A DNA stretch of 64,000 nucleotides from Bacteroidaceae bacterium (GTDB taxonomy: Bacteria > Bacteroidota > Bacteroidia > Bacteroidales > Bacteroidaceae). The notes under the pieces were generated by a model. That model did no database searches. It was not told the DNA's origin and saw nothing but the letters and a program-made list of their open reading frames with translations. The first letter of the stretch is position 1. Each line of letters opens with the position of its first letter. The position numbers and the translations under genes were made by a program. Positions 8,978 through 25,188 of this stretch are shown here, piece by piece. Where the stretch lies: contig JAZRRI010000036.1 of NCBI GenBank assembly GCA_045650605.1, positions 18,755-82,754 of the forward strand, in the 5' to 3' direction.

Positions 8978-9196
8978 TTATTCTGTCAAGTCAAGAAAAC
9001 CTACAATGTCGGTGTCTGTTATCTGCTTTTTGTGTTCTACAAATTCTCCGTTTGTAAGTCTTTGGAATGTTACATCGCCATTTTCATTTGCTTTGAATGC
9101 TACCTTGAACTCTTCACGATTCTTTATCTGTTTACCATCATATGCAGTAATGATGTCTCCTTTATTGAATACAGGATGTTGTGCATCGTCCTTTAT
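8978..9196 (-). pseudogene. PDZ-domain remainder, in frame with and directly downstream of the TIR ORF stop
   Basis: 72 sense codons follow the TAA at 9199-9197 in the same frame: IKDDAQHPVFNKGDIITAYDGKQIKNREEFKVAFKANENGDVTFQRLTNGEFVEHK. There is no start codon of its own. The PDZ pattern begins before the stop (YAGVIIY). Confidence 0.6.
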
Positions 9197-10909
9197 TTAA
9201 TAGATAATTACTCCTGCATATTGGCGTTTCCCTTTTGCCAGTTCGCGAAAGAACTTTTTTGCCGAAGCTACATATTCTTTGCTTTCGGGATGGTAGCTCT
9301 GATATACCATAAGCATTGAATCCATATCAGCATATGCTACGTCCGGAGTAATGGAAGATGTTGTATGTATATTCATTGACTTCATCTCCTGACGGTTCTC
9401 TACAAGTATTGCAAGGTATGTTCCCCACCTGCGTATCTTGCCCCATTTGTTCCATTGCTTGTCATCTTCTTCCAATGTGCATTTCTCTTTAAACTGTTCA
9501 TAAATCTGTACAATTTGATTATCAAGTTCAAGCAGGCCATATTTATATTTCAAACTCTTTACAACAACCTCTTCCGCCTTAACCTTTTCTTCGCGTAAAG
9601 CAAGTTCGTGTTGCATAGCTTCAAGTTGTGCAAAGTCTTCATGCATCTGCTTTTCAAATTGTGCAAAACCTTCATGCATTCGCTTTTCAAGCCTGTCATT
9701 CTCTTTTTGTAAATCTTCCAGTTCTGCATCGGTCTTTTCAAGAATACTGCTGTATCTTGAGTGAGCGTCATAGGCAAGTTTTGATTCAGTCTTCATCCTG
9801 CTCTCATAATATTCTTTGCTTTCATCAATCTTATAGAATAGGATAGGGAAGTGTAGCCACTCTTCGTTTATTTTGTTGTATAGCTCTCTAGAATATTTGG
9901 GGAAAGCTGACAATTCGCATAGAGTGGAGAGGTAGTATGCGTTTATAGAATGTTCTAAGGCTTCAAAAAGCACAGACACAAATCTGCGATTGGAAGTGTT
10001 TGGCTCAGTTACAGCTGTACGTATTATGTTCAATGTGTTTATATAATCGGTATAATACAATGTCGCAAGTGACGGAGATATGGATATGCTTTCAGCATTT
10101 ATCCCATGTAATGAGAGTAAAAAACTGTGATATGAATTAATATCCATTGGTACTGAATCGACTTGCCAAATCTGTCTTATATTTTGTTCTACCAGATCAA
10201 TACTTGACAACATCTCTTCTTGATAAGATTTGATACGCTCCGGTCTCTGCTCATAATTGAGCATGTTATTGAATGTCTCCCAACTCTGTTTCAGGTAGTC
10301 ATTCTCTGCTGCAATGATATGTACTTGGCTTGCGTCTATTGTAAGGCATGTTGCATATTTCTTGCATACATCGCGAGACAAAACCATGAATACAGCAAAA
10401 ATTATTGCAACCAATGCCAATAGAGAGGAAATTATTATAGATGAAATTTTTATAAGTTTCTTTATTGGCAGGTGACGTTTGCTAAGCAAATATCGTTTTT
10501 GCAGTTTCTCCATTGCCATGTCAAAGTATTCGACAGAACCGGCTGCAACAGCCTGGTAGTTGCACAGCTCTTCCATACCTTGCGGCATTGGATTTGGCCA
10601 TACAAAGCCATTGAGCATTACCGGTATAATGTTTTTTTTGTGACTCATTGCGCACAACACCTCTTTGCGCACCCAGTCTTCTTCATTGCTACACCGTTCG
10701 AGAGCATCAGGGGGTAATACAATAACAAAGTCACGACATCCTTCTATTACATTGAACAATTGTTCATTGAATGGTCCCGAGCGCATAGATTCGAGGTCAA
10801 AGAATACTCTGTATCCGGCCGATTTCAAGCGTGTCGCTATCAGGTTTGCTGTTTCGTAAGAACTGCGGCGGTAGCTTATAAAAATATCATAATTATGTTT
10901 CATCGTCAT
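9197..10909 (-). CDS. TIR domain - TM - helical/coiled-coil protein (C-terminal PDZ truncated by a stop)
   Basis: 570 aa. N-terminal TIR (YDIFISYRRSSYE...RVFFD...DWVRKEV), one TM (ISSIIISSLLALVAIIFAVFMVL) and a long helical C-terminal region with an 11-aa tandem repeat. Confidence 0.85.
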   Translation of the reverse strand: MTMKHNYDIFISYRRSSYETANLIATRLKSAGYRVFFDLESMRSGPFNEQLFNVIEGCRDFVIVLPPDALERCSNEEDWVRKEVLCAMSHKKNIIPVMLNGFVWPNPMPQGMEELCNYQAVAAGSVEYFDMAMEKLQKRYLLSKRHLPIKKLIKISSIIISSLLALVAIIFAVFMVLSRDVCKKYATCLTIDASQVHIIAAENDYLKQSWETFNNMLNYEQRPERIKSYQEEMLSSIDLVEQNIRQIWQVDSVPMDINSYHSFLLSLHGINAESISISPSLATLYYTDYINTLNIIRTAVTEPNTSNRRFVSVLFEALEHSINAYYLSTLCELSAFPKYSRELYNKINEEWLHFPILFYKIDESKEYYESRMKTESKLAYDAHSRYSSILEKTDAELEDLQKENDRLEKRMHEGFAQFEKQMHEDFAQLEAMQHELALREEKVKAEEVVVKSLKYKYGLLELDNQIVQIYEQFKEKCTLEEDDKQWNKWGKIRRWGTYLAILVENRQEMKSMNIHTTSSITPDVAYADMDSMLMVYQSYHPESKEYVASAKKFFRELAKGKRQYAGVIIY

Positions 10910-15116: not shown

Positions 15117-16332
15117 TTATTAGTGATGCGTTAACTTTGCATCATTCTATTTTAAGTTGTTAATATATAATTATTTATATTCGTTCTTTGATTTTTTGAT
15201 TTGAATTGAGTTTATAATTTTGCCGGATAAACACTGCGAAATTATGAATAAAGGCAAGTTTGTATTCTCTCAAGTCATTGATTTCCTCCCTCGTTATGAG
15301 TTTGACAAGATTGTCAAGGTATACAATGGAGATTACCGATATAGACATTTGACAAGTTACAATCATTTGCTTCATTTGATATTCGGTCAACTTACGGGAT
15401 GTTATTCTCTTCGCGACATTTGTTTATGTCTAAAAGCTCACGAAAAATGGCTCTATCATCTTGGCTTTCGTCAAACAGTGAACGAATCGTCATTATCCAG
15501 AGCAGGAGAGAACCGCGATTATCGCATATTTGAAGAATTGGGTTCTGTACTAATTCAAATGGCTAGACCTTTATACTTCAAAGAAAAGATTCCCGATGTA
15601 TGGTTGCCCGAACAAGAAATTTTCGCTTTGGATTCAATAACTATATCTTGCAGTATAAAGCTGATGTCTTGGGCTCTTGGGAAGTATGAACGAGGAGCTG
15701 TGAAAATGCATACGCTTTTAGATTTGCGTGGCAACATTCATTTCAAAGCATTACACCGTATTCATACTAACAATGCCTATTTCATTACCAGAGCTAAGAA
15801 GAATATGAAGTACGAGGTTGTTGAAACCAACTACAATATATATGAGGAACAGGATTAAGAGGAGATTTTATTATAAACCTTACGGGGTATAACCCCCAAA
15901 AACTCTATCCTGAATCTTTTAGGCTTGTCAAATATTATGACTCCGATAATGAAGAATAATTAGAATTTATCACCAATTATCTTGATTTTGATGCCTTGGG
16001 CATCGCAAATCTTTATAGGAATAGGTGGCAAATAGAAACCTTCTTCAAATGGATTAAGGGCAACCTTGCTATTAAGACGCTTTGGGGGCACTCTGAAAAT
16101 GCAGTGAAGATACACCTGTGGGTTGCGATTTGCACATACCTTTGGTTGCTATCATCAAAGCAAAATGCAACAGTCAATACTCTATTACAGAAGTTGAAAT
16201 GTTACTCAGAGTATCCGCCTTAGAGCGAATCAATATAAGAGAATTGCTTACAAAGGCCATTGAAAAATTACTCAATCAAAACCAAAATGTCAAAGAACTA
16301 AATTTATTTGAATTTTTACGCATCAGTAATAA
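15117..16332 (+). mobile_element. decayed IS4-family insertion sequence with terminal inverted repeats
   Basis: IRs ttattagtgatgcgttaa (15117-15134) and ttacgcatcagtaataa (16316-16332) match at 15/17 positions. They enclose broken transposase ORFs. The element fills the gap between the P2 start (15105) and the STAND gene stop (16348). Confidence 0.7.
15244..16223 (+). pseudogene. IS4-family (DUF4372 + DDE) transposase, frameshifted and internally deleted
   Basis: N-terminus MNKGKFVFSQVIDFLPRYEFDKIV...HLTSYNHLL and C-terminus NLYRNRWQIETFFKWIKGNL are in different frames. The central catalytic segment after LLDLRGNI looks deleted. Confidence 0.75.
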
Positions 16333-16347
16333 TGTTTCATCATAGTT

Positions 16348-19300
16348 TTAATTTACACATGCATCTTTATTTGTGTATAACTGATGATATTTTTTATATA
16401 AAGAATATTCCTGTTCGTTTATAAATCGTTGATAAATTGTCCAATAATCTAATTCATTGGGTATTAGTTCTATGACTCTCATTGTTGTGAGATTTAAGCA
16501 TAACAATATATCAAACCCATTAAAACTGTCATAATTTAATTTTTCTCCACCTAATATTACGCCATGCCATATTCGTCCTTTATCTAAACATTCAATAAAA
16601 ACGGCTTTATTTTTCAGTTCTCCACAATATATTTCAGGTAATAAATAATTAGCAGAGACATTTGTATCACCATTTTCATCACAAATAGAAGGCTCCCAAT
16701 CATTTTTTGTAATTGTATAGTATCTAAACCCAGGTAAAGGGAATTTATATCTTGATAAATAAGCAACACCATTCCCATTAGGTTCATTTGTTTTTGCATT
16801 TATAAAATAGTATGCTTTTAGTGGACCCAGCCATTGTTCTATTGTATTTCCATATATGTCTACTCGGTTTTCAGTGGTGGTTTTTAGTATTGTATCTGAA
16901 TTATATTCTCTTTCTACAACATAATTTCTATTTGGGAAATGTTCTGTTACTTTAATTTTATGTAACTTATCTTTATTATAGTAAATCACACTATCCGTTT
17001 CTTGAAAGTATATGGAATCTTTATCAAGTCCATTATCAGCATAAACATATTCTATCCTATGCCATCTATTATAATCATCTTCATATTCATATTCATATGG
17101 TGTTTCGCCATCTAATTCATAATAGACATCTTCAATAACTCTGTTTTTGTTATCATATGTCATTTTATTAATGTATTCGTTATATATTCTCCCTCTAAAT
17201 TTTCTAGTTTCTATATTGTCCACTTTTTCGTAATTAAAAATGCCTATGGTATCTACCCCCTCGGTTTTTATTTCATCCTGAAAAACACATTCATTTTTTT
17301 TATTATATCTACTATTTCGTATTGTGGTTTTTCCATTTGCATTCTCTGAATAGTACAATATATTACCATTAGTGTCAAATCTTACTTCTATTAAATTTGT
17401 TAGCTCGTCTTTAACATTGTAATATCGATATTCTAAAGAATTTTTTGCATCATCATATAGTGTTCTGCGTATATGGAAATTGATAGAATCTGGGCAAACA
17501 GGTCCATCCTCATTCCAAAGCGACACCATTATTTCACGACCATTATTGTCGTATTCATACATTGCACGAGAATATCCATCTTTAACTGCTTTTTCTCGTC
17601 CAAATTCATCAACAGACAAAGTCTCTACTATACGATAACCATCATATTTGCAAATCTGCCCACAGTTTCCTGCATGGTCAATCATTCTTTTACCATACAT
17701 GTTCAACGAAGACGTAGAAATGCATTGGCCAAAATCGTCATACTCATAATAAGTTTGATATGCTCCATGGGCATTGGTAGATGGGTTACCATCCAAATCA
17801 AAATATTCAACGAGCATATCACGTCCATTATTATCATACGTAATTCTAATAAATCTGTAACCTGCTTTTAGAAGTTCTATGGGCAGACCTTGTCCATCGA
17901 CATAACTTCCTATAATACATTTACCCTTGAAACTTTGATTTTGTAGCTCTTTTCGAGCTCTCATATCTTGTGTGTTTTTTGAATTTTGTTCATCTTGTGA
18001 GGTCGTTTGAGGTGCATTGTAATTGAACGCATATATCAAGTTGTCATACTTGTCATAAGCTCGTTCTTGTATAACTGAATCCTTATAAACAGGGTCTTTG
18101 ATAAACTTCCACTTACAAACCATTTGCAGTTTACCTTTAATATCATCTGCCAATATACTATCCTCCATTTGTCCAGTAACAATATAAGGAGAGATGTTGT
18201 GACTTGTTGATAGATTGTTAAATCTATCTCTACATTCCATTGAGGTGTATGTTTTAGTAATGAGACCTTTTTTCTTTAGAACAAAATGGTATGGTCGGAA
18301 TGATGCACTTTTTTTACTTAAAGATTCTATACCTACAAAACGTCCCCATTGTTTTGTAATGCTTGCATATCTTTTAGAAATAGGAATGAGATATCCTATC
18401 ACATAGAATATTATACACATTAAAAGAATGATTATTCCTAGTAGAGTAATACTTCTTTGTCTTCGTAAATCTTTTAATTTTTTATTATGATTTTTCTTCT
18501 CGGCAGCTATTCTTCTTTCCTCCTTATTTTTTTCTACAACTGGGCATAATATGTCATGTACATATTCTATGCGAAGATCGCCGGCGTAATTAAATTGCCT
18601 GAGAATTTTTTTCTTATTACAGAGAATATCTAATTCCAGCTCCGAAATATTGCCATCATTTATGGCATCATATACCGTAATATTATCTCTACGCCCTTGA
18701 CCGTTCAGGAGCATATCTTCCAAATACTCAATTGTAGAATCAGAAATGTCTGATAAGGCATCATTATAGAAGTCTGATATAATTTCTCCGCCTTTCTGTT
18801 CTACAAGTTCTTTTGTAATGGTCTTTCCTTCTTTGGTTTCGTAAAGGCGGTTGAGATAAAGAGATAGTACCGCAGAGTCTACCTCTATTTCGGGTACTCC
18901 ATCAATTTTAAAATCCTTCTTTCCTGTAATTTTTTCTATAATTAGTTTGGCGACTGATTCATCGATAAGTTCCGGTACTGGGCGTAATATAATTTGAGCC
19001 GCCTGTTCCTCATTGATAGGGCGTAAACCGTATCTATTCTGTTTTAGTGATGGTATTGCGGCAGAATAGTATTCAAACTCCGAAAGAAAATCCTCTCTTA
19101 TTGTAAAAACGAAATGGATATCATTATCTGTTACATATTCGGGCAAACTATTCTCAACACCCAAATTTAAATCATCAAATATATTCTCAAGATCACTCTC
19201 TTCTCCTACTATTATCTCTTCTTGGGTATCTGATGAGATTTCAACTTTTTGTTGAAGTTCATCAGGCATAATATCATTAAGCAAATCTGCTAAATGAGTA

Positions 19301-19842
19301 AAAAAGTTTTTCTTCTTTTGGACATCATCCTGCAATGTAAATATTTCCTCAAATTGATCGAAAATTATTAATAATTTTAGACGATCTCCATTGGCATTAT
19401 GAAATGTATGTCTGTGGAAATATTCATAAAAACTTTCAGCTTCAGTATTCTTGCAGGGAATGACCTCTCTAATCAACGATTGGGCATCATTAAGGGCATG
19501 GTCTCCATTTGTAATGGAAACATCTGTTCCAAGTTCACCTGTTAGAGAATGGAGAATCGCATTTAATATAGCTTGATTAATTTGGTGTAGATAAGAATGC
19601 TCCTCCTTATGAGATAATCTTATAAGAACCGGTAAATAGCCATTCCTTCGTGCGGCGGGTAAAATACCTGCATTAAGGATAGAAGATTTACCAATACCAC
19701 TTTTTCCATACAATAAAGTATCAGTGTCATTTAATACACATTGAGACAAATCTCTAATGTCATCATCTCGACCATATAAAATTTCTCCTTCTTTATATGA
19801 TTCAAGTCCTAACCACGGATTCTTTCGTACAAACTCTTCCAT
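16348..19842 (-). CDS. transmembrane STAND-type P-loop NTPase with C-terminal YD (RHS-like) repeats
   Basis: 1164 aa. NPWLGLESYKEGEILYGRDDD, Walker A LYGKSGIGKSSILNAG and Walker B LLIIFDQFEEIF. One TM (ITLLGIIILLMCIIFYVIGYLIPI), then repeats such as ITYDNNGRDMLVEYFDLDGNP, YYEYDDFGQ and MYEYDNNGRE. Confidence 0.8.
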   Translation of the reverse strand: MEEFVRKNPWLGLESYKEGEILYGRDDDIRDLSQCVLNDTDTLLYGKSGIGKSSILNAGILPAARRNGYLPVLIRLSHKEEHSYLHQINQAILNAILHSLTGELGTDVSITNGDHALNDAQSLIREVIPCKNTEAESFYEYFHRHTFHNANGDRLKLLIIFDQFEEIFTLQDDVQKKKNFFTHLADLLNDIMPDELQQKVEISSDTQEEIIVGEESDLENIFDDLNLGVENSLPEYVTDNDIHFVFTIREDFLSEFEYYSAAIPSLKQNRYGLRPINEEQAAQIILRPVPELIDESVAKLIIEKITGKKDFKIDGVPEIEVDSAVLSLYLNRLYETKEGKTITKELVEQKGGEIISDFYNDALSDISDSTIEYLEDMLLNGQGRRDNITVYDAINDGNISELELDILCNKKKILRQFNYAGDLRIEYVHDILCPVVEKNKEERRIAAEKKNHNKKLKDLRRQRSITLLGIIILLMCIIFYVIGYLIPISKRYASITKQWGRFVGIESLSKKSASFRPYHFVLKKKGLITKTYTSMECRDRFNNLSTSHNISPYIVTGQMEDSILADDIKGKLQMVCKWKFIKDPVYKDSVIQERAYDKYDNLIYAFNYNAPQTTSQDEQNSKNTQDMRARKELQNQSFKGKCIIGSYVDGQGLPIELLKAGYRFIRITYDNNGRDMLVEYFDLDGNPSTNAHGAYQTYYEYDDFGQCISTSSLNMYGKRMIDHAGNCGQICKYDGYRIVETLSVDEFGREKAVKDGYSRAMYEYDNNGREIMVSLWNEDGPVCPDSINFHIRRTLYDDAKNSLEYRYYNVKDELTNLIEVRFDTNGNILYYSENANGKTTIRNSRYNKKNECVFQDEIKTEGVDTIGIFNYEKVDNIETRKFRGRIYNEYINKMTYDNKNRVIEDVYYELDGETPYEYEYEDDYNRWHRIEYVYADNGLDKDSIYFQETDSVIYYNKDKLHKIKVTEHFPNRNYVVEREYNSDTILKTTTENRVDIYGNTIEQWLGPLKAYYFINAKTNEPNGNGVAYLSRYKFPLPGFRYYTITKNDWEPSICDENGDTNVSANYLLPEIYCGELKNKAVFIECLDKGRIWHGVILGGEKLNYDSFNGFDILLCLNLTTMRVIELIPNELDYWTIYQRFINEQEYSLYKKYHQLYTNKDACVN

Positions 19843-19846
19843 ATCC

Positions 19847-21211
19847 TTAATCTTGATTCATTTTATGAATAATCTTTTCTGCTACGATTTCAATACCATC
19901 TTCAGTTGAGTAGAAAATAGCATTGTGCTGTTGCATTCTTTCCGGGATAGCAGCTTTATAGAAATCAAAATTGCTATCCGCCAATGGTATAATATATGTG
20001 CGCCCCATACTTATAGCGACCTCTATTGCTGTATCCCATTCATTTCTATAAACATGTGACTCTCGTTTCTCTTTTTCGATATTAGGAGTTAATATGGGAA
20101 CGAAATATTTAGCTGTTTTAATTGCTTTTCGAATTTCATCCATAAAAAGCCCACCATCTGTAAGATTGTATTTGTCATACCAGACTCGTTTCCCTTGAGC
20201 AGTTAAGGCTTTATACAGTTGTTCTGCAACTTGTGTGTCCGAGCGAGAATATGAGATAAATACATCCATATTCTCTTCAGGCTTGTTGAATTTGGTGGCT
20301 TCATTTTCCTTCAACTTCTTGTCTAAGCGGACTAAAATTTGTTCAATCACATCGGAAGTATTTTGCTTCGTGAAAGTTTCAGTACGTTCCAAGAAGTTAA
20401 TTAATGACTCATCCAATGTGTCATAGGCCAACATTCCGTGACCTAAATCTGGTTTTCGCATTGAATACCAAATAAATCTAAACAACCAATCACTGTATGT
20501 GTTGCCTAACATTAATAGATATTTATCTTTAAGTTCGTTGCATAGATTTTTCGGGCGCGCTTTGTTGTCGTTCGAAAGCCAAGAAGACACGAAATCTAAT
20601 AAATCAATATCAGTCAAGACGTATTTATGAGCACCGGCACCAACCTTTCCAAACATATAATATATTGTAGGTTTCCTCAAGTCGGCTCCATTTTTTATAT
20701 CACTATTTTCAGAAGGATTGTTATTAAACTTCATAACCCTCAACTCGTCCTTCCAAATATTTTGCATAGCCTGTTCTATTACAGGAGTAAAACTTGTCGT
20801 GATTATAAACGGGAAATGCCTAATAGACAATAGTCTGCGTAAACGTTCCGATGCCGGAAAGCGTTTAGCTGCAAAAATCTTGTCAACTTGATAATATATG
20901 TTATCAAGTTTAAAATTGAATTTATTTTTATATTCTGGGGTATATATTAGTTCTGAAAAACTATTAATCTGTTTATTAACTCCAAAGTTTTTAGCAAGTC
21001 CATCTATGATGACTTTATGCAAATTAGAACTATTGTCAATTAACAAATCTGCACCAATAACAGGGATAACATTACCATCTATTATTTGCTGTATCAGTTT
21101 ATCCCATAGAGGCTCGTCATTATTGTTGTCAAAGATGTTTGAATCAATGATATCATCGAACGAAAAATCCATCATCTCTTTATTTGGTGTATCTTGACTA
21201 AGCTTTTCCAT
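19847..21211 (-). CDS. SIR2-like domain - TIR domain fusion protein
   Basis: 454 aa. SIR2_2-like motifs GNVIPVIGADLL, FPFIITTSFTPVIEQA, YVLTDIDLLDF and LMLGNTYSDW. C-terminal TIR DVFISYSRSDTQVAEQLY...VWYD...YRNEW. Its stop lies 4 nt before the STAND gene start. Confidence 0.75.
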   Translation of the reverse strand: MEKLSQDTPNKEMMDFSFDDIIDSNIFDNNNDEPLWDKLIQQIIDGNVIPVIGADLLIDNSSNLHKVIIDGLAKNFGVNKQINSFSELIYTPEYKNKFNFKLDNIYYQVDKIFAAKRFPASERLRRLLSIRHFPFIITTSFTPVIEQAMQNIWKDELRVMKFNNNPSENSDIKNGADLRKPTIYYMFGKVGAGAHKYVLTDIDLLDFVSSWLSNDNKARPKNLCNELKDKYLLMLGNTYSDWLFRFIWYSMRKPDLGHGMLAYDTLDESLINFLERTETFTKQNTSDVIEQILVRLDKKLKENEATKFNKPEENMDVFISYSRSDTQVAEQLYKALTAQGKRVWYDKYNLTDGGLFMDEIRKAIKTAKYFVPILTPNIEKEKRESHVYRNEWDTAIEVAISMGRTYIIPLADSNFDFYKAAIPERMQQHNAIFYSTEDGIEIVAEKIIHKMNQD

Positions 21212-24137: not shown

Positions 24138-24143
24138 AGATAC

Positions 24144-24653
24144 CTATTTTATATATTGTTTTCTTTTTCCTCGAAGGTAAGATGCTCTTCTCCAAATTTC
24201 ATTGACAAGATTAATTTTGGATCTATTGGCAAAAGCATAGATATTTACTCCCTCTCTTACACACCATACCATACCTGATTTATTGACTTTATAATAACAG
24301 CGTACCCAAGCGCTCAAGAGAAGGATGCCAAATATCGAAATACATAATATGACACCTATGAAGTAGAGAGTAAATACTGAAGGTTGATAGATCACACCAC
24401 TGTTTACTTCTTCAATAAACGCATCAGAATAAACTATTTTCCCAAAAGGTCCATATTCCATTGAAGCGACCTTCTTGTCAGTTATACACACAAAACTTTT
24501 GGTTGTAAAAAAGACACCATAACTGCCTAAATACTCGACAGTGATAATAGTTTCATCTTCAGCCATGAAAGTTTGGAACATGGCTTTAATAGCTTCTTTG
24601 TCGCCTAGTGTCGCTTGTTTTACAATCGAACCATCAATCTGAATTTTTGCCAT
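24144..24653 (-). CDS. hypothetical membrane protein
   Basis: 169 aa. Soluble N-terminal part, then a TM (VFTLYFIGVILCISIFGILLLSAW). Confidence 0.5.
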   Translation of the reverse strand: MAKIQIDGSIVKQATLGDKEAIKAMFQTFMAEDETIITVEYLGSYGVFFTTKSFVCITDKKVASMEYGPFGKIVYSDAFIEEVNSGVIYQPSVFTLYFIGVILCISIFGILLLSAWVRCYYKVNKSGMVWCVREGVNIYAFANRSKINLVNEIWRRASYLRGKRKQYIK

Positions 24654-24672
24654 AAGATTATAGTTTAAAAGG

Positions 24673-25188
24673 TTATTTATCTTCGAAAATCCGTTTTATA
24701 AATCGCAGTATTTTATTTTGAGGTTCATTCCATTGAAGGACATCGATATATTCTCGTTCTTTAATATTATTGACCTCTTCTTTCCTTTCTCCATATAACA
24801 ATGATTTAATGTCTGCCACTAGTGCTTTTGCTTTCTGAGTAGAATATGGAGTAGCATCTATGCAATTTAAGTCGGTCATAACAAATTGCAACTTCTTGCT
24901 AAAAGAAGAATTGTCTATTTTGTATGGAATGATATATTTACCGGCATTGAATGCTAATGCGACTTCCTTTGCTGTATATATAGAATTATTGGAGTCTGAA
25001 GATGAAATAAATAAGGTTATTGTAGAATTTTCTATAGCATCAACTATATCTGCCATAAACTCACTTCCCATATGGACTTTTTCAGTGTCTAACCAATAGG
25101 TTATGGCATTTGAATCTAATAGTTGCCTTATTTCACCTACGACTGCCAGGTCTTTCCGTGAATAGCTTATAAATACATCGTATTTCAT
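24673..25188 (-). CDS. stand-alone TIR domain protein
   Basis: 171 aa. YDVFISYSRKDLAVVGEI...YWLD...IYTAKEV. Confidence 0.85.
   Translation of the reverse strand: MKYDVFISYSRKDLAVVGEIRQLLDSNAITYWLDTEKVHMGSEFMADIVDAIENSTITLFISSSDSNNSIYTAKEVALAFNAGKYIIPYKIDNSSFSKKLQFVMTDLNCIDATPYSTQKAKALVADIKSLLYGERKEEVNNIKEREYIDVLQWNEPQNKILRFIKRIFEDK

Follow-up and report, generated by a model that had tools for sequence, protein, structure and literature searches.

The window analyzed here is a stretch of 64,000 nucleotides (nt) of contig JAZRRI010000036.1 (assembly GCA_045650605.1, forward-strand positions 18,755 to 82,754) from a Bacteroidaceae bacterium. It carries two adjacent genes, designated gene A and gene B, which encode a SIR2-like/TIR fusion protein and an NTPase of the STAND class (signal transduction ATPases with numerous domains). 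The NTPase comprises a nucleotide-binding oligomerization domain (NOD) module, a predicted transmembrane helix and a beta-repeat C-terminal half. The features of the pair, in window coordinates, are as follows.

19847-21211, minus strand: gene A, SIR2-like/TIR fusion protein of 454 amino acids (aa), from the open reading frame (ORF), its translation and Pfam; stop codon included.
20342-21118, minus strand: SIR2-like domain of gene A, approximately residues 32-290, predicted to be catalytically inactive, from Pfam SIR2_2 and alignments.
20792-20794, minus strand: codon of S140, at the position of ThsA N112.
20651-20653, minus strand: codon of F187, at the position of ThsA H152.
19862-20272, minus strand: TIR domain of gene A, approximately residues 314-450, from Pfam TIR_2.
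20039-20041, minus strand: codon of E391, the candidate catalytic glutamate.
19843-19846, minus strand: 4-nt spacer GGAT between the gene A stop codon and the gene B ATG, read directly from the sequence.
16348-19842, minus strand: gene B, nSTAND1 NTPase-transmembrane helix-beta-repeat protein of 1164 aa, from the ORF and its translation; stop codon included.
18523-19821, minus strand: nSTAND1 NOD module, residues 8-440, predicted to be cytoplasmic, from PF20703, Foldseek and the Walker motifs.
19681-19707, minus strand: Walker A motif GKSGIGKSS, residues 46-54.
19345-19374, minus strand: Walker B motif LLIIFDQFEE, residues 157-166.
18379-18450, minus strand: single predicted transmembrane helix, residues 465-488, ITLLGIIILLMCIIFYVIGYLIPI, from Kyte-Doolittle hydrophobicity and AlphaFold2.
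18007-18378, minus strand: conserved juxtamembrane beta domain, residues 489-612, predicted to be extracytoplasmic, from AlphaFold2 strands and a conserved motif.
Residues 613-652 of gene B, minus strand: low-confidence linker in the AlphaFold2 model.
16687-17886, minus strand: YD/RHS-like beta-hairpin repeat array, approximately residues 653-1052, putative sensor, from motifs, AlphaFold2 and Foldseek.
16351-16686, minus strand: small C-terminal beta domain with a terminal helix, residues 1053-1164, the "short" tail variant, from AlphaFold2.

A first-pass annotation, made by a model from the sequence alone, had placed the stop codon of the SIR2-like/TIR gene 4 nt from the start of the NTPase gene. 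This was exact: the coding strand across the junction reads GAT TAA ggat ATG GAA. All of the motifs quoted there were also found in gene B, namely NPWLGLESY..GEILYGRDDD at residues 8-28, GKSGIGKSS at residues 46-54 and LLIIFDQFEEIF at residues 157-168. In relatives with called genes, the two genes are separated by 4 nt (L001) or 11 nt (L004 and L006) or overlap by 11 nt (L002); here and below, L numbers denote genome loci and P numbers denote related proteins. Both ORFs are long and lie in DNA with a guanine-plus-cytosine (GC) content of 31%-35%, both have significant profile matches, and gene B has 1148 homologs at E <= 1e-3 among the scored candidates. The pair therefore does not consist of chance features.

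The two genes form a conserved, self-contained module found across at least five phyla. The adjacency statistics cover the best 80 of 465 confirmed loci; these 80 belong to Bacteroidales, Beta- and Gammaproteobacteria, Acidobacteriota, Verrucomicrobiota, Planctomycetota and other groups. At 78 of the 80, tblastn placed a full-length SIR2-TIR homolog directly upstream of the NTPase gene on the same strand, which contradicts the possibility, raised at the outset, that homologs of the two genes are never adjacent elsewhere. Clustering of all ORFs showed that only the gene A and gene B families occurred in all 80 loci; the other recurrent ORF "families" were antisense ORFs inside these two genes. 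The pair stands alone between integrase-like genes in Alistipes (L002 and L007). The identities of the two proteins to those of the window co-vary, with a Pearson coefficient of 0.98. Co-variation, a check proposed in the first-pass annotation, was seen overall, but among the distant loci, with less than 35% identity, the comparison had no resolution (Spearman coefficient of 0.06).

The N-terminal half of gene B is a bona fide STAND NTPase of the nSTAND1 clade with intact Walker motifs. Pfam PF20703 (nSTAND1) matched residues 9-352 with 90.4 bits against a cut-off of 27.1 (E value of 2e-25), and the same domain is recorded on essentially all gene B homologs. Residues G46, G49, G51, K52, S53, D162, E165, and E166 of the Walker motifs are invariant in 39 full-length homologs. 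The AlphaFold2 model of full-length gene B, based on 39 homologs, had a mean predicted local distance difference test (pLDDT) value of 73.7 and a predicted template modeling score (pTM) of 0.50, and contained an alpha/beta NOD module extending to approximately residue 440. Foldseek comparison of this half with the PDB gave Apaf-1 (3j2t), CED-4, RPP1 (7dfv), Avs4 (8dgf) and Cdc6/ORC with probabilities of 0.98-1.0. The Pfam match and these structural alignments together bear out the earlier identification of the protein as a STAND NTPase. No PADLOC-DB v2.0 family, Avs models included, matched the NTPase at E <= 0.01, and no effector-associated domain (EAD) was detected in the pair by Pfam scan.

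The part of gene B following the helix comprises 676 aa and is all-beta: in the AlphaFold2 model antiparallel strands extend from residue 487 to residue 1141 and are followed by a terminal helix. The juxtamembrane domain contains the motif P-V-S-x-R-Y-A-S-T-T-K-x-W-G, which is conserved among homologs. YD-type motifs, including YDNNGR, YEYDDFGQ, YEYDNNGRE and others, are present in the C-terminus, and the YD-like array was modeled as approximately 30 antiparallel strands with pLDDT mostly in the range of 80-92. A separate model of residues 487-1164 had a pLDDT of 77.5 and a pTM of 0.59. Its top 16 Foldseek matches in the PDB were all shells of Rhs, Tc BC, teneurin or SGS1 proteins (E values of 1e-10 to 1e-5, probabilities of 0.99-1.0), and single-layer OspA sheets ranked after them. 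A PDB sequence search with the C-terminus gave nothing useful, and neither the RHS core motif DPxG[LWF] nor a toxin domain was found in the gene B protein by motif and Pfam scans.

An exhaustive HMMER search with the C-terminus retrieved 1783 representative clusters (50% identity) at E <= 1e-3, and region 160-330 of the query was matched 5 to 16 times in many of them. Besides the fold comparison, this was the sole search with the C-terminus that proved informative. The Pfam RHS_repeat cut-off was passed by two of the six scanned relatives (P0164 with 46.8 bits and P0161 with 32.1 bits), and a PDZ domain is located at the end of two of the six. These data support the assignment of the C-terminus as YD/RHS-like by predicted fold and transitive homology, not by Pfam, and the models are consistent with a genuine YD-type hairpin sheet lacking the closed Rhs cocoon. 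The first-pass annotation had proposed about 650 aa of YD-type repeats; the YD/RHS-like character held, given the 16 Foldseek matches and the relatives that pass RHS_repeat, but the array itself occupies only about 400 aa (residues 653-1052).

The YD-like module is also found in other proteins, where it usually follows a transmembrane helix. Among them are TIR proteins, a patatin-like protein, STAND NTPases of at least two kinds and Ser/Thr kinases, of which some have zf-HC2. Members of this module family (relatives P0121-P0264) often end in a PDZ domain, and Pfam largely misses the family.

A single transmembrane helix between the NTPase and the repeats, as noted in the first-pass annotation, was found at residues 465-488 and proved to be a family-wide feature. 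The segment ITLLGIIILLMCIIFYVIGYLIPI is the only strongly hydrophobic one in the gene B protein, with a Kyte-Doolittle 19-mer value of 2.91, and AlphaFold2 placed it in the second half of a long helix (residues 432-485) that follows the NOD, the modeled transmembrane part being residues 459-485. Exactly one hydrophobic segment is present at the matching position in approximately 112 of the 120 best gene B homologs, and at nearly all genome loci the helix lies about 385-400 aa past Walker A. Verrucomicrobial homologs with WD40 propellers after the helix also keep it, which indicates that the predicted membrane span is ancestral to this nSTAND1 subfamily and not peculiar to the YD version.

Gene B probably has an N-in/C-out topology with an extracytoplasmic C-terminal half, as judged from the charge bias around the helix and from homologous domains located behind Sec signal peptides or behind the helix of Ser/Thr kinases and TIR proteins. 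The net charge of the N-terminal flank of the helix exceeds that of the C-terminal flank in 61 of 71 loci and is lower in 4. At L008, L010, and L012, genes just downstream of the NTPase gene encode proteins with Sec signal peptides (e.g., MKKALLFLLLAAGITVAEAQQL) that are homologous to the juxtamembrane domain and first YD repeats of the window protein (BLASTP E values of 1e-20 to 1e-24). One or two such genes per locus follow the NTPase (L008, 11491-18207; L010, 11540-about 14200; L012, 11577-16795; also L013 and L015). Their products, of 367 to 1629 aa, are closer to the window ectodomain than the ectodomains of their own NTPases are, and Pfam gave no match on any of the exported neighbor proteins of L008, L010, L012, L013, and L015. 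Possible roles are those of secreted co-receptors, of decoys or of a reservoir from which sensors are exchanged.

A hydrophobic helix precedes the repeats in 127 of 144 further representatives of the repeat module. By a rough, local classification, their N-terminal modules are a STAND NTPase in 62 cases, a Ser/Thr kinase in 24, a TIR domain in 13 and only a signal peptide in 4. Classical Sec signal peptides precede the ectodomain homolog in P0135, P0210, P0225, and P0231. Pfam confirmed the kinase in P0154 and P0161, the latter also containing zf-HC2. The N-in/C-out topology of receptor-type Ser/Thr kinases of bacteria and of zf-HC2 anti-sigma modules is established. We judge this comparative evidence on ectodomains to be the strongest support for the predicted topology. 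The earlier proposal that the repeats are located outside the cytoplasm is thus favored both by the flank charges and by the exported and receptor-linked homologs.

Comparison of homologs indicates that divergence is faster in the sensor half than in the NOD half. From P0008 to P0015, overall identity to the window protein falls from 72% to 56% and C-terminal identity from 59% to 51%; the values for P0008 are 72% and 59%, respectively. P0030, P0035, P0036, P0038, P0040, and P0044 are 86%-92% identical to the window protein over the NOD only (90%-92% for P0030 and P0044) beyond which they have WD40 repeats or a YD array that has diverged strongly. The closest relative, L001, in which the gene is 92% identical, is collinear with the window until 36 nt before the NTPase stop codon; beyond this point L001 encodes about 170 aa more, a PDZ-like tail, and is followed by genes other than those in the window. 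This tail difference and the NOD/sensor divergence form the pattern expected of diversifying pressure or cassette exchange acting on the sensor. Single-linkage clustering of the sensor C-termini merged 107 of 119 via shared repeats and is too coarse for counting sensor types.

An ORF encoding DUF4372 (15220-15858, plus strand; E value of 1e-30), the N-terminal portion of IS4-type transposases, adjoins the end of the NTPase gene, where synteny with L001 breaks. Truncation of the 3' end of the NTPase gene by this transposase fragment was considered and was not supported, as this is also the natural terminus of P0007, P0021, and P0024. Nor was any remnant of the tail of about 170 aa found downstream of gene B in the window.

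Gene A combines two domains, of which only one is likely to be an enzyme. Pfam SIR2_2 matched residues 135-253 with 31.8 bits against a cut-off of 24.5 (E value of 1.8e-7), and TIR_2 matched residues 317-414 with 70.7 bits against a cut-off of 28 (E value of 2e-19). The profile of the SIR2-like family matched ThsA with an E value of 7e-5. In the profile alignment with ThsA (6lhx), TTNYD is opposite TTTFD of the family and YKMHG is opposite YHLFG, the window protein having YMFG; in the alignment with KomC, TTNYD is opposite TTSFT of the window protein. The catalytic residues of ThsA are N112, in the motif TTN[YF]D, and H152, in the motif hK[LI]HG; both motifs can be seen in the aligned 6lhx sequence. 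In 75 homologs, position 140 is occupied by T (60) or S (14) and never by N, position 187 is F, L or M and never H, and the GAGxS loop has become G-P/A-E/D in the family. The SIR2-like domain has therefore lost the catalytic Asn/His dyad in all phyla while keeping the fold, and is probably inactive. We infer that it is a docking or regulatory module and not a second NADase; an active SIR2 NADase was rejected on account of the family-wide absence of the catalytic residues.

The TIR domain is likely the sole enzyme of gene A. Its closest solved structures, by PDB sequence matches, are SARM1/TIR-1, AbTIR, PdTIR and related TIRs. Hardly any variation is seen in the TIR motifs of the 75 homologs, E391, W392, and A395 being present in all 73 that are ungapped at these positions. 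The family-profile alignment to Caenorhabditis elegans TIR-1 places the Glu of WVHKE on E391, which makes this residue the best candidate for catalysis, with an ambiguous register. The designation "SIR2-like-TIR effector" given by the first-pass annotation thus most likely applies to the TIR domain, with its invariant E391, and not to the SIR2 module, which is degenerate and lacks the dyad. PADLOC gave only partial, weak TIR-only matches of the ThsB type on gene A, the NCBIfam Thoeris model scored 32.6 bits against a cut-off of 220, and scans with Pfam, PADLOC, and NCBIfam revealed neither SLOG nor Macro nor any further known signal-receiver domain in gene A or gene B.

In some relatives gene A is split. 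At L004 (8689-9989) and L005 (815-2115), a SIR2-like part of 216 aa and a TIR part of 194 aa are called as distinct genes in different frames. Split or frameshifted gene A was found on at least eight contigs, and the NTPase of this lineage is 44% identical to that of the window.

The pair lies in an island of about 8.9-29.4 kb (8900-29430), in which the GC fraction is 0.31-0.40, compared to 0.48-0.50 in the flanks, and all genes are on the minus strand. The other genes of the island are as follows.

Minus strand: 842-aa protein with four transmembrane helices, 189-aa protein, C39-like protein with RyR and Zn-ribbon domains, 171-aa TIR_2 protein, and 169-aa protein with one transmembrane helix.
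Minus strand: M48 peptidase with a Zn-ribbon, three small (Zn-ribbon) proteins, 323-aa protein, two multi-transmembrane proteins, PrsW, and a TIR-transmembrane protein.

Apart from gene A, two TIR proteins are thus encoded in the island, one of them with a TIR-helix-ectodomain layout. Much of this gene set recurs around the pair in Bacteroidales (L001, L004, L006, L008, and L013) and not in other phyla. The island is flanked by housekeeping genes (CreD and PP2C; ComF-like, PrmC, HAD, PGI, GpsA, and LysRS), and the pair of L004 also adjoins pgi. No tRNA genes were found in the window, and hence none at the island borders. PADLOC gave no matches on six neighboring proteins of the window. Among 117 neighbor ORFs of approximately 19 other loci, it identified MADS components, AriA, QatD, PD-T4-6, SoFic, and HEC-06, which lends modest support to a defense context.

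Several observations were made on the island itself. The TIR-transmembrane protein (8987-10909, minus strand) comprises 570 aa, with TIR_2 at residues 9-107, one transmembrane helix at residues 158-176 and a C-terminal part that is coiled-coil or unassigned. This is a Toll-like-receptor-like layout, and its ORF spans 9197-10909, with an in-frame stop codon at 9197. About 65 codons continue in frame past this stop codon as a PDZ-like tail (FNKGDIITAYDGKQI...GFLDLTE), and the C-terminal region spanning the stop codon (9502-8987) is 34% identical (E value of 2e-33) to the extension of the L001/P0001 NTPase. The stop codon at 9197 is either a nonsense mutation, making the gene a pseudogene, or a sequencing error. 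The shared PDZ-like tail links the TIR-transmembrane protein with variants of the NTPase. A cassette swap was also seen between islands that are otherwise 92%-97% identical: positions 24138-25161 of the window encode the 171-aa TIR_2 protein and the 169-aa single-transmembrane protein, while positions 4260-5703 of L001 encode a 478-aa protein with TIR_2 and Sel1. The genes between the NTPase gene and PrsW are likewise exchanged between the window and L001.

The pair shares parts with several known systems. The nSTAND1 clade was named by Kaur, Iyer, Burroughs, and Aravind (eLife 2021, PMC8195603). The nSTAND1 conflict systems (PMC8195603; eLife 2020, PMC7159879) belong to the same clade, PF20703, and have a variable sensor and modular effectors, with WD40 variants among them. 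As far as the accessible portions of these two papers go, those systems join their effectors via EADs or Death-like adaptors (bDLD3/EAD10, EACC1), unlike the pair, in which Pfam detected no EAD. The same portions mention no SIR2-like/TIR partner gene, no helix between the NOD and the repeats and no YD repeats, and the terms "SIR2" and "RHS" occur zero times in that of the 2020 text.

Avs/AVAST and bNACHT systems, including the TIR-STAND-TPR "TIR-NLR" of P4 satellites, share with the pair a STAND core, a C-terminal repeat sensor and a TIR or SIR2 death effector, and activation driven by oligomerization is the accepted model for their STANDs. However, each of these is one cytosolic polypeptide in which the effector is N-terminal and the sensor, mostly TPR-like, binds phage proteins within the cell. 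In the pair, the effector is a separate gene, the NOD starts at residue 8, and a helix is followed by an all-beta YD-like sensor. Since there was no PADLOC match, the effector is encoded in trans and the receptor is predicted to span the membrane, the pair is not a member of Avs. The first-pass annotation did not recognize a membrane-spanning STAND with an extracytoplasmic YD-repeat sensor and an effector in trans from described Avs/STAND systems; this agrees with the lack of a PADLOC model and of a literature description. The searchable literature, which did not extend to most subscription journals and supplementary tables, covers the nSTAND1 clade, the TIR-NLR system and new types of Thoeris but contained no description of the SIR2-like/TIR and transmembrane STAND pair or of the STAND-helix-YD architecture, and the public sources gave no names for these proteins.

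Thoeris (ThsA with SIR2-SLOG, ThsB with TIR) likewise combines a SIR2 fold with TIR, and the SIR2-like profile of the family aligns with ThsA. In contrast to Thoeris, the SIR2-like and TIR domains are fused here, SLOG and the equivalents of N112 and H152 are missing, and the partner is a STAND NTPase. Because of the missing signal-receiver domain, the probably inactive SIR2 and the STAND partner, the pair is not a member of Thoeris. In sequence, the TIR domain of gene A is most similar to SARM1/TIR-1, and its invariant Glu aligns with the catalytic Glu of TIR-1 in the profile alignment. STAND oligomers serve as TIR-clustering platforms in the plant TIR-type NLR (TNL; NLR, nucleotide-binding leucine-rich repeat) resistosomes RPP1 and ROQ1, which like SARM1/TIR-1 are TIR NADases that induced proximity activates. 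Unlike in SARM1, RPP1 and ROQ1, the TIR domain here shares its polypeptide with a degenerate SIR2 fold and is encoded apart from the STAND, and its activity is a prediction. By analogy, the order of ectodomain, helix and cytoplasmic module may follow the logic of single-pass receptors such as Toll-like receptors, PknB-type Ser/Thr kinases and anti-sigma factors, from which gene B differs in having a STAND NTPase as the predicted cytoplasmic module; no receptor of this kind is known to have been characterized. With RHS/YD shells (type VI secretion system [T6SS] Rhs effectors, Tc BC toxins, and teneurins) it shares the hairpin repeat with YD motifs; in contrast to them, it has no closed cocoon, plug, core autoprotease motif or toxin, and the array is a putative receptor ectodomain.

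On balance, we regard it as somewhat probable that the pair is a two-gene NLR-like conflict module, probably anti-phage and acting by abortive infection, with a receptor that spans the inner membrane. We infer its topology, direction of signaling, interaction between the two proteins, NADase activity, trigger and immune role from the features described above, the topology following from the charge bias and from the homologous exported or receptor-type ectodomains. Gene B would consist of a cytoplasmic NOD, one helix and an extracytoplasmic ectodomain composed of the juxtamembrane beta domain, the YD array and the terminal domain. The ectodomain would bind an envelope-located cue, for example a component of a phage or other invader or a product of the damage it causes. 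Binding or clustering could be relayed via the helix to NTP-dependent oligomerization of the NOD under the membrane. The NOD oligomer would recruit and cluster the cytoplasmic SIR2-like/TIR protein, the degenerate SIR2 probably being the docking or regulatory part. The clustered TIR domains would then form active sites cleaving NAD+, resulting in its depletion or, less likely, in the production of a signal, and NAD+ cleavage would lead to growth stop.

A number of observations weigh against this interpretation. The predicted topology was derived, besides the comparison of homologous ectodomains, from hydrophobicity and flank charge, a crude analysis, and in the window protein itself both flanks of the helix are positive, with seven versus four K/R residues. 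The pTM of the gene B models is only 0.50-0.59. The Foldseek matches to Rhs shells are local only, with TM-scores of 0.11-0.21 and root-mean-square deviations of 25-30 A, and neither Pfam (PF05593, at E values up to 10) nor NCBIfam (TIGR01643) gave an RHS/YD repeat match on the 676-aa C-terminus. The single-sequence alignment with SARM1 sets E642 opposite A395 instead of E391, and the alignments with PdTIR and AbTIR are in still other registers. The PADLOC matches among the neighbors of other loci are few, scattered and of single proteins.

In addition, paralogs without a transmembrane helix (P0029, P0031, P0033, P0034, and L011) carry similar YD-like repeats. They comprise 1654-1689 aa, with a charged coiled coil in place of the helix and YD-like repeats over the next 1200 aa or so; the maximal 19-mer hydrophobicity of P0031 is 1.43. 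The NODs of P0029, P0031, P0033, and P0034 are nearly identical to that of the window, and the NOD of L011 (1070-6031) is about 49% identical. Their tail domain is that of the helix-bearing P0004, and the L011 NTPase is also preceded by a SIR2-TIR gene. This type of YD-like repeat is therefore not confined to one compartment, and the comparison suggests that cytoplasmic and envelope versions of one system exist.

Among the alternative explanations, the one that survives best retains the same architecture and topology and differs from the interpretation above in the trigger only. The pair may sense envelope integrity, interbacterial attack (by T6SS or contact-dependent toxins) or kin and self, in which case TIR would impose growth arrest or altruistic death within crowded gut communities. 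Binding at surfaces and the sensing of periplasmic peptides are typical roles of YD-repeat and PDZ ectodomains, and PDZ domains are located at the end of relatives, as in the tail of P0001. General devices of envelope signaling, namely Ser/Thr kinases and zf-HC2 modules, carry the same type of ectodomain. The membrane-associated proteases PrsW and M48 are encoded in the window island, and the island adjoins housekeeping genes, close to pgi in two relatives that are distant, which is unlike a mobile defense island. However, the TIR and STAND combinations described so far function in immunity or conflict, the sensor half diverges rapidly and is swapped, in keeping with an arms race, and some neighbors in other genomes are defense genes. 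We consider a trigger other than phage unlikely, though worth keeping in view.

It is also rather improbable that TIR acts as a signal generator, as in Thoeris, producing a cyclic ADP-ribose-type nucleotide that acts on the SIR2-like domain or on the RyR, Zn-ribbon or multi-transmembrane proteins of the island. Such a role would account for the partners that recur in the window, L001, L006, L008, and L013 (the 842-aa protein with four transmembrane helices, the 189-aa protein, the C39-like/RyR protein, TIR proteins, and PrsW). A SIR2 fold with a nucleotide pocket and without catalytic residues could bind a nucleotide, and many new TIR signaling systems have been reported lately. On the contrary, only the two genes are conserved in the 80 loci and the pair is solitary in Alistipes, so that there is no obligatory third effector. 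The lack of a detected SLOG, Macro or other known signal-receiver domain and the proximity of the TIR domain to the NAD+-consuming TIRs of the SARM1/TIR-1 type also speak against it.

We give little credence to the possibility that the hydrophobic segment is a mere membrane anchor or a buried oligomerization helix, and that the YD-like repeats are the cytoplasmic sensor of an ordinary cytosolic NLR-like protein tethered to the membrane. The paralogs without the helix, which have similar repeats and the same tail domain, are in line with it, as are the positive charges on both flanks of the window helix, and other STANDs have WD40 and YD-like repeats that function in the cytoplasm. However, for a 24-residue hydrophobic helix (Kyte-Doolittle value of 2.9) within an otherwise soluble protein the only options are to cross the membrane or to stay out of it, its position is conserved across phyla with a consistent positive-inside bias, and homologous ectodomains are located behind Sec signal peptides of the cleavable type or after the helix of receptor kinases. 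Finally, the idea that gene B is an RHS/YD polymorphic toxin or teneurin-like surface toxin with an incidental NTPase similarity can hardly be maintained and was rejected: T6SS Rhs effectors, Tc BC toxins, and teneurins are its top Foldseek matches, but the hairpins cover only about 400 aa with TM-scores of 0.1-0.2, the core/aspartyl-protease motif, a toxin domain and PAAR/VgrG context are missing, the N-terminus is a bona fide STAND, and the conserved partner is a TIR protein.

The module is widespread and not unique to the window. Beyond the pair itself, it may represent a widespread, undescribed class of transmembrane NLR-like immune receptors, with a periplasmic, rapidly diversifying YD or WD40 sensor and a separate TIR enzyme docked via a dead SIR2 fold, and with the YD(-PDZ) ectodomain defining a wider receptor superfamily whose members also feed Ser/Thr kinases and stand-alone TIR proteins; we put this broader view forward tentatively. 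To our knowledge, all characterized bacterial STAND/NLR-like defense proteins sense phage proteins in the cytoplasm. If the NOD of gene B is indeed inside and its sensor outside, NLR-type, TIR-executed immunity would be run from the periplasm as well. Such surveillance would be topologically like that of Toll-like receptors and plant receptor kinases, making the protein a hybrid of the Toll-like receptor and the NLR, and invaders would be detected while still at the envelope, whether or not they later reach the cytoplasm. The degenerate SIR2 fold may be an adaptor. As a compact cassette of two genes, the pair occurs in Bacteroides ilei and Alistipes, which are examples of culturable taxa, and in many Proteobacteria. 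For genome annotation, it reveals a large family of YD(-PDZ) ectodomains (1783 clusters) that are attached to kinases, TIR proteins, and STAND NTPases and are largely invisible to Pfam.

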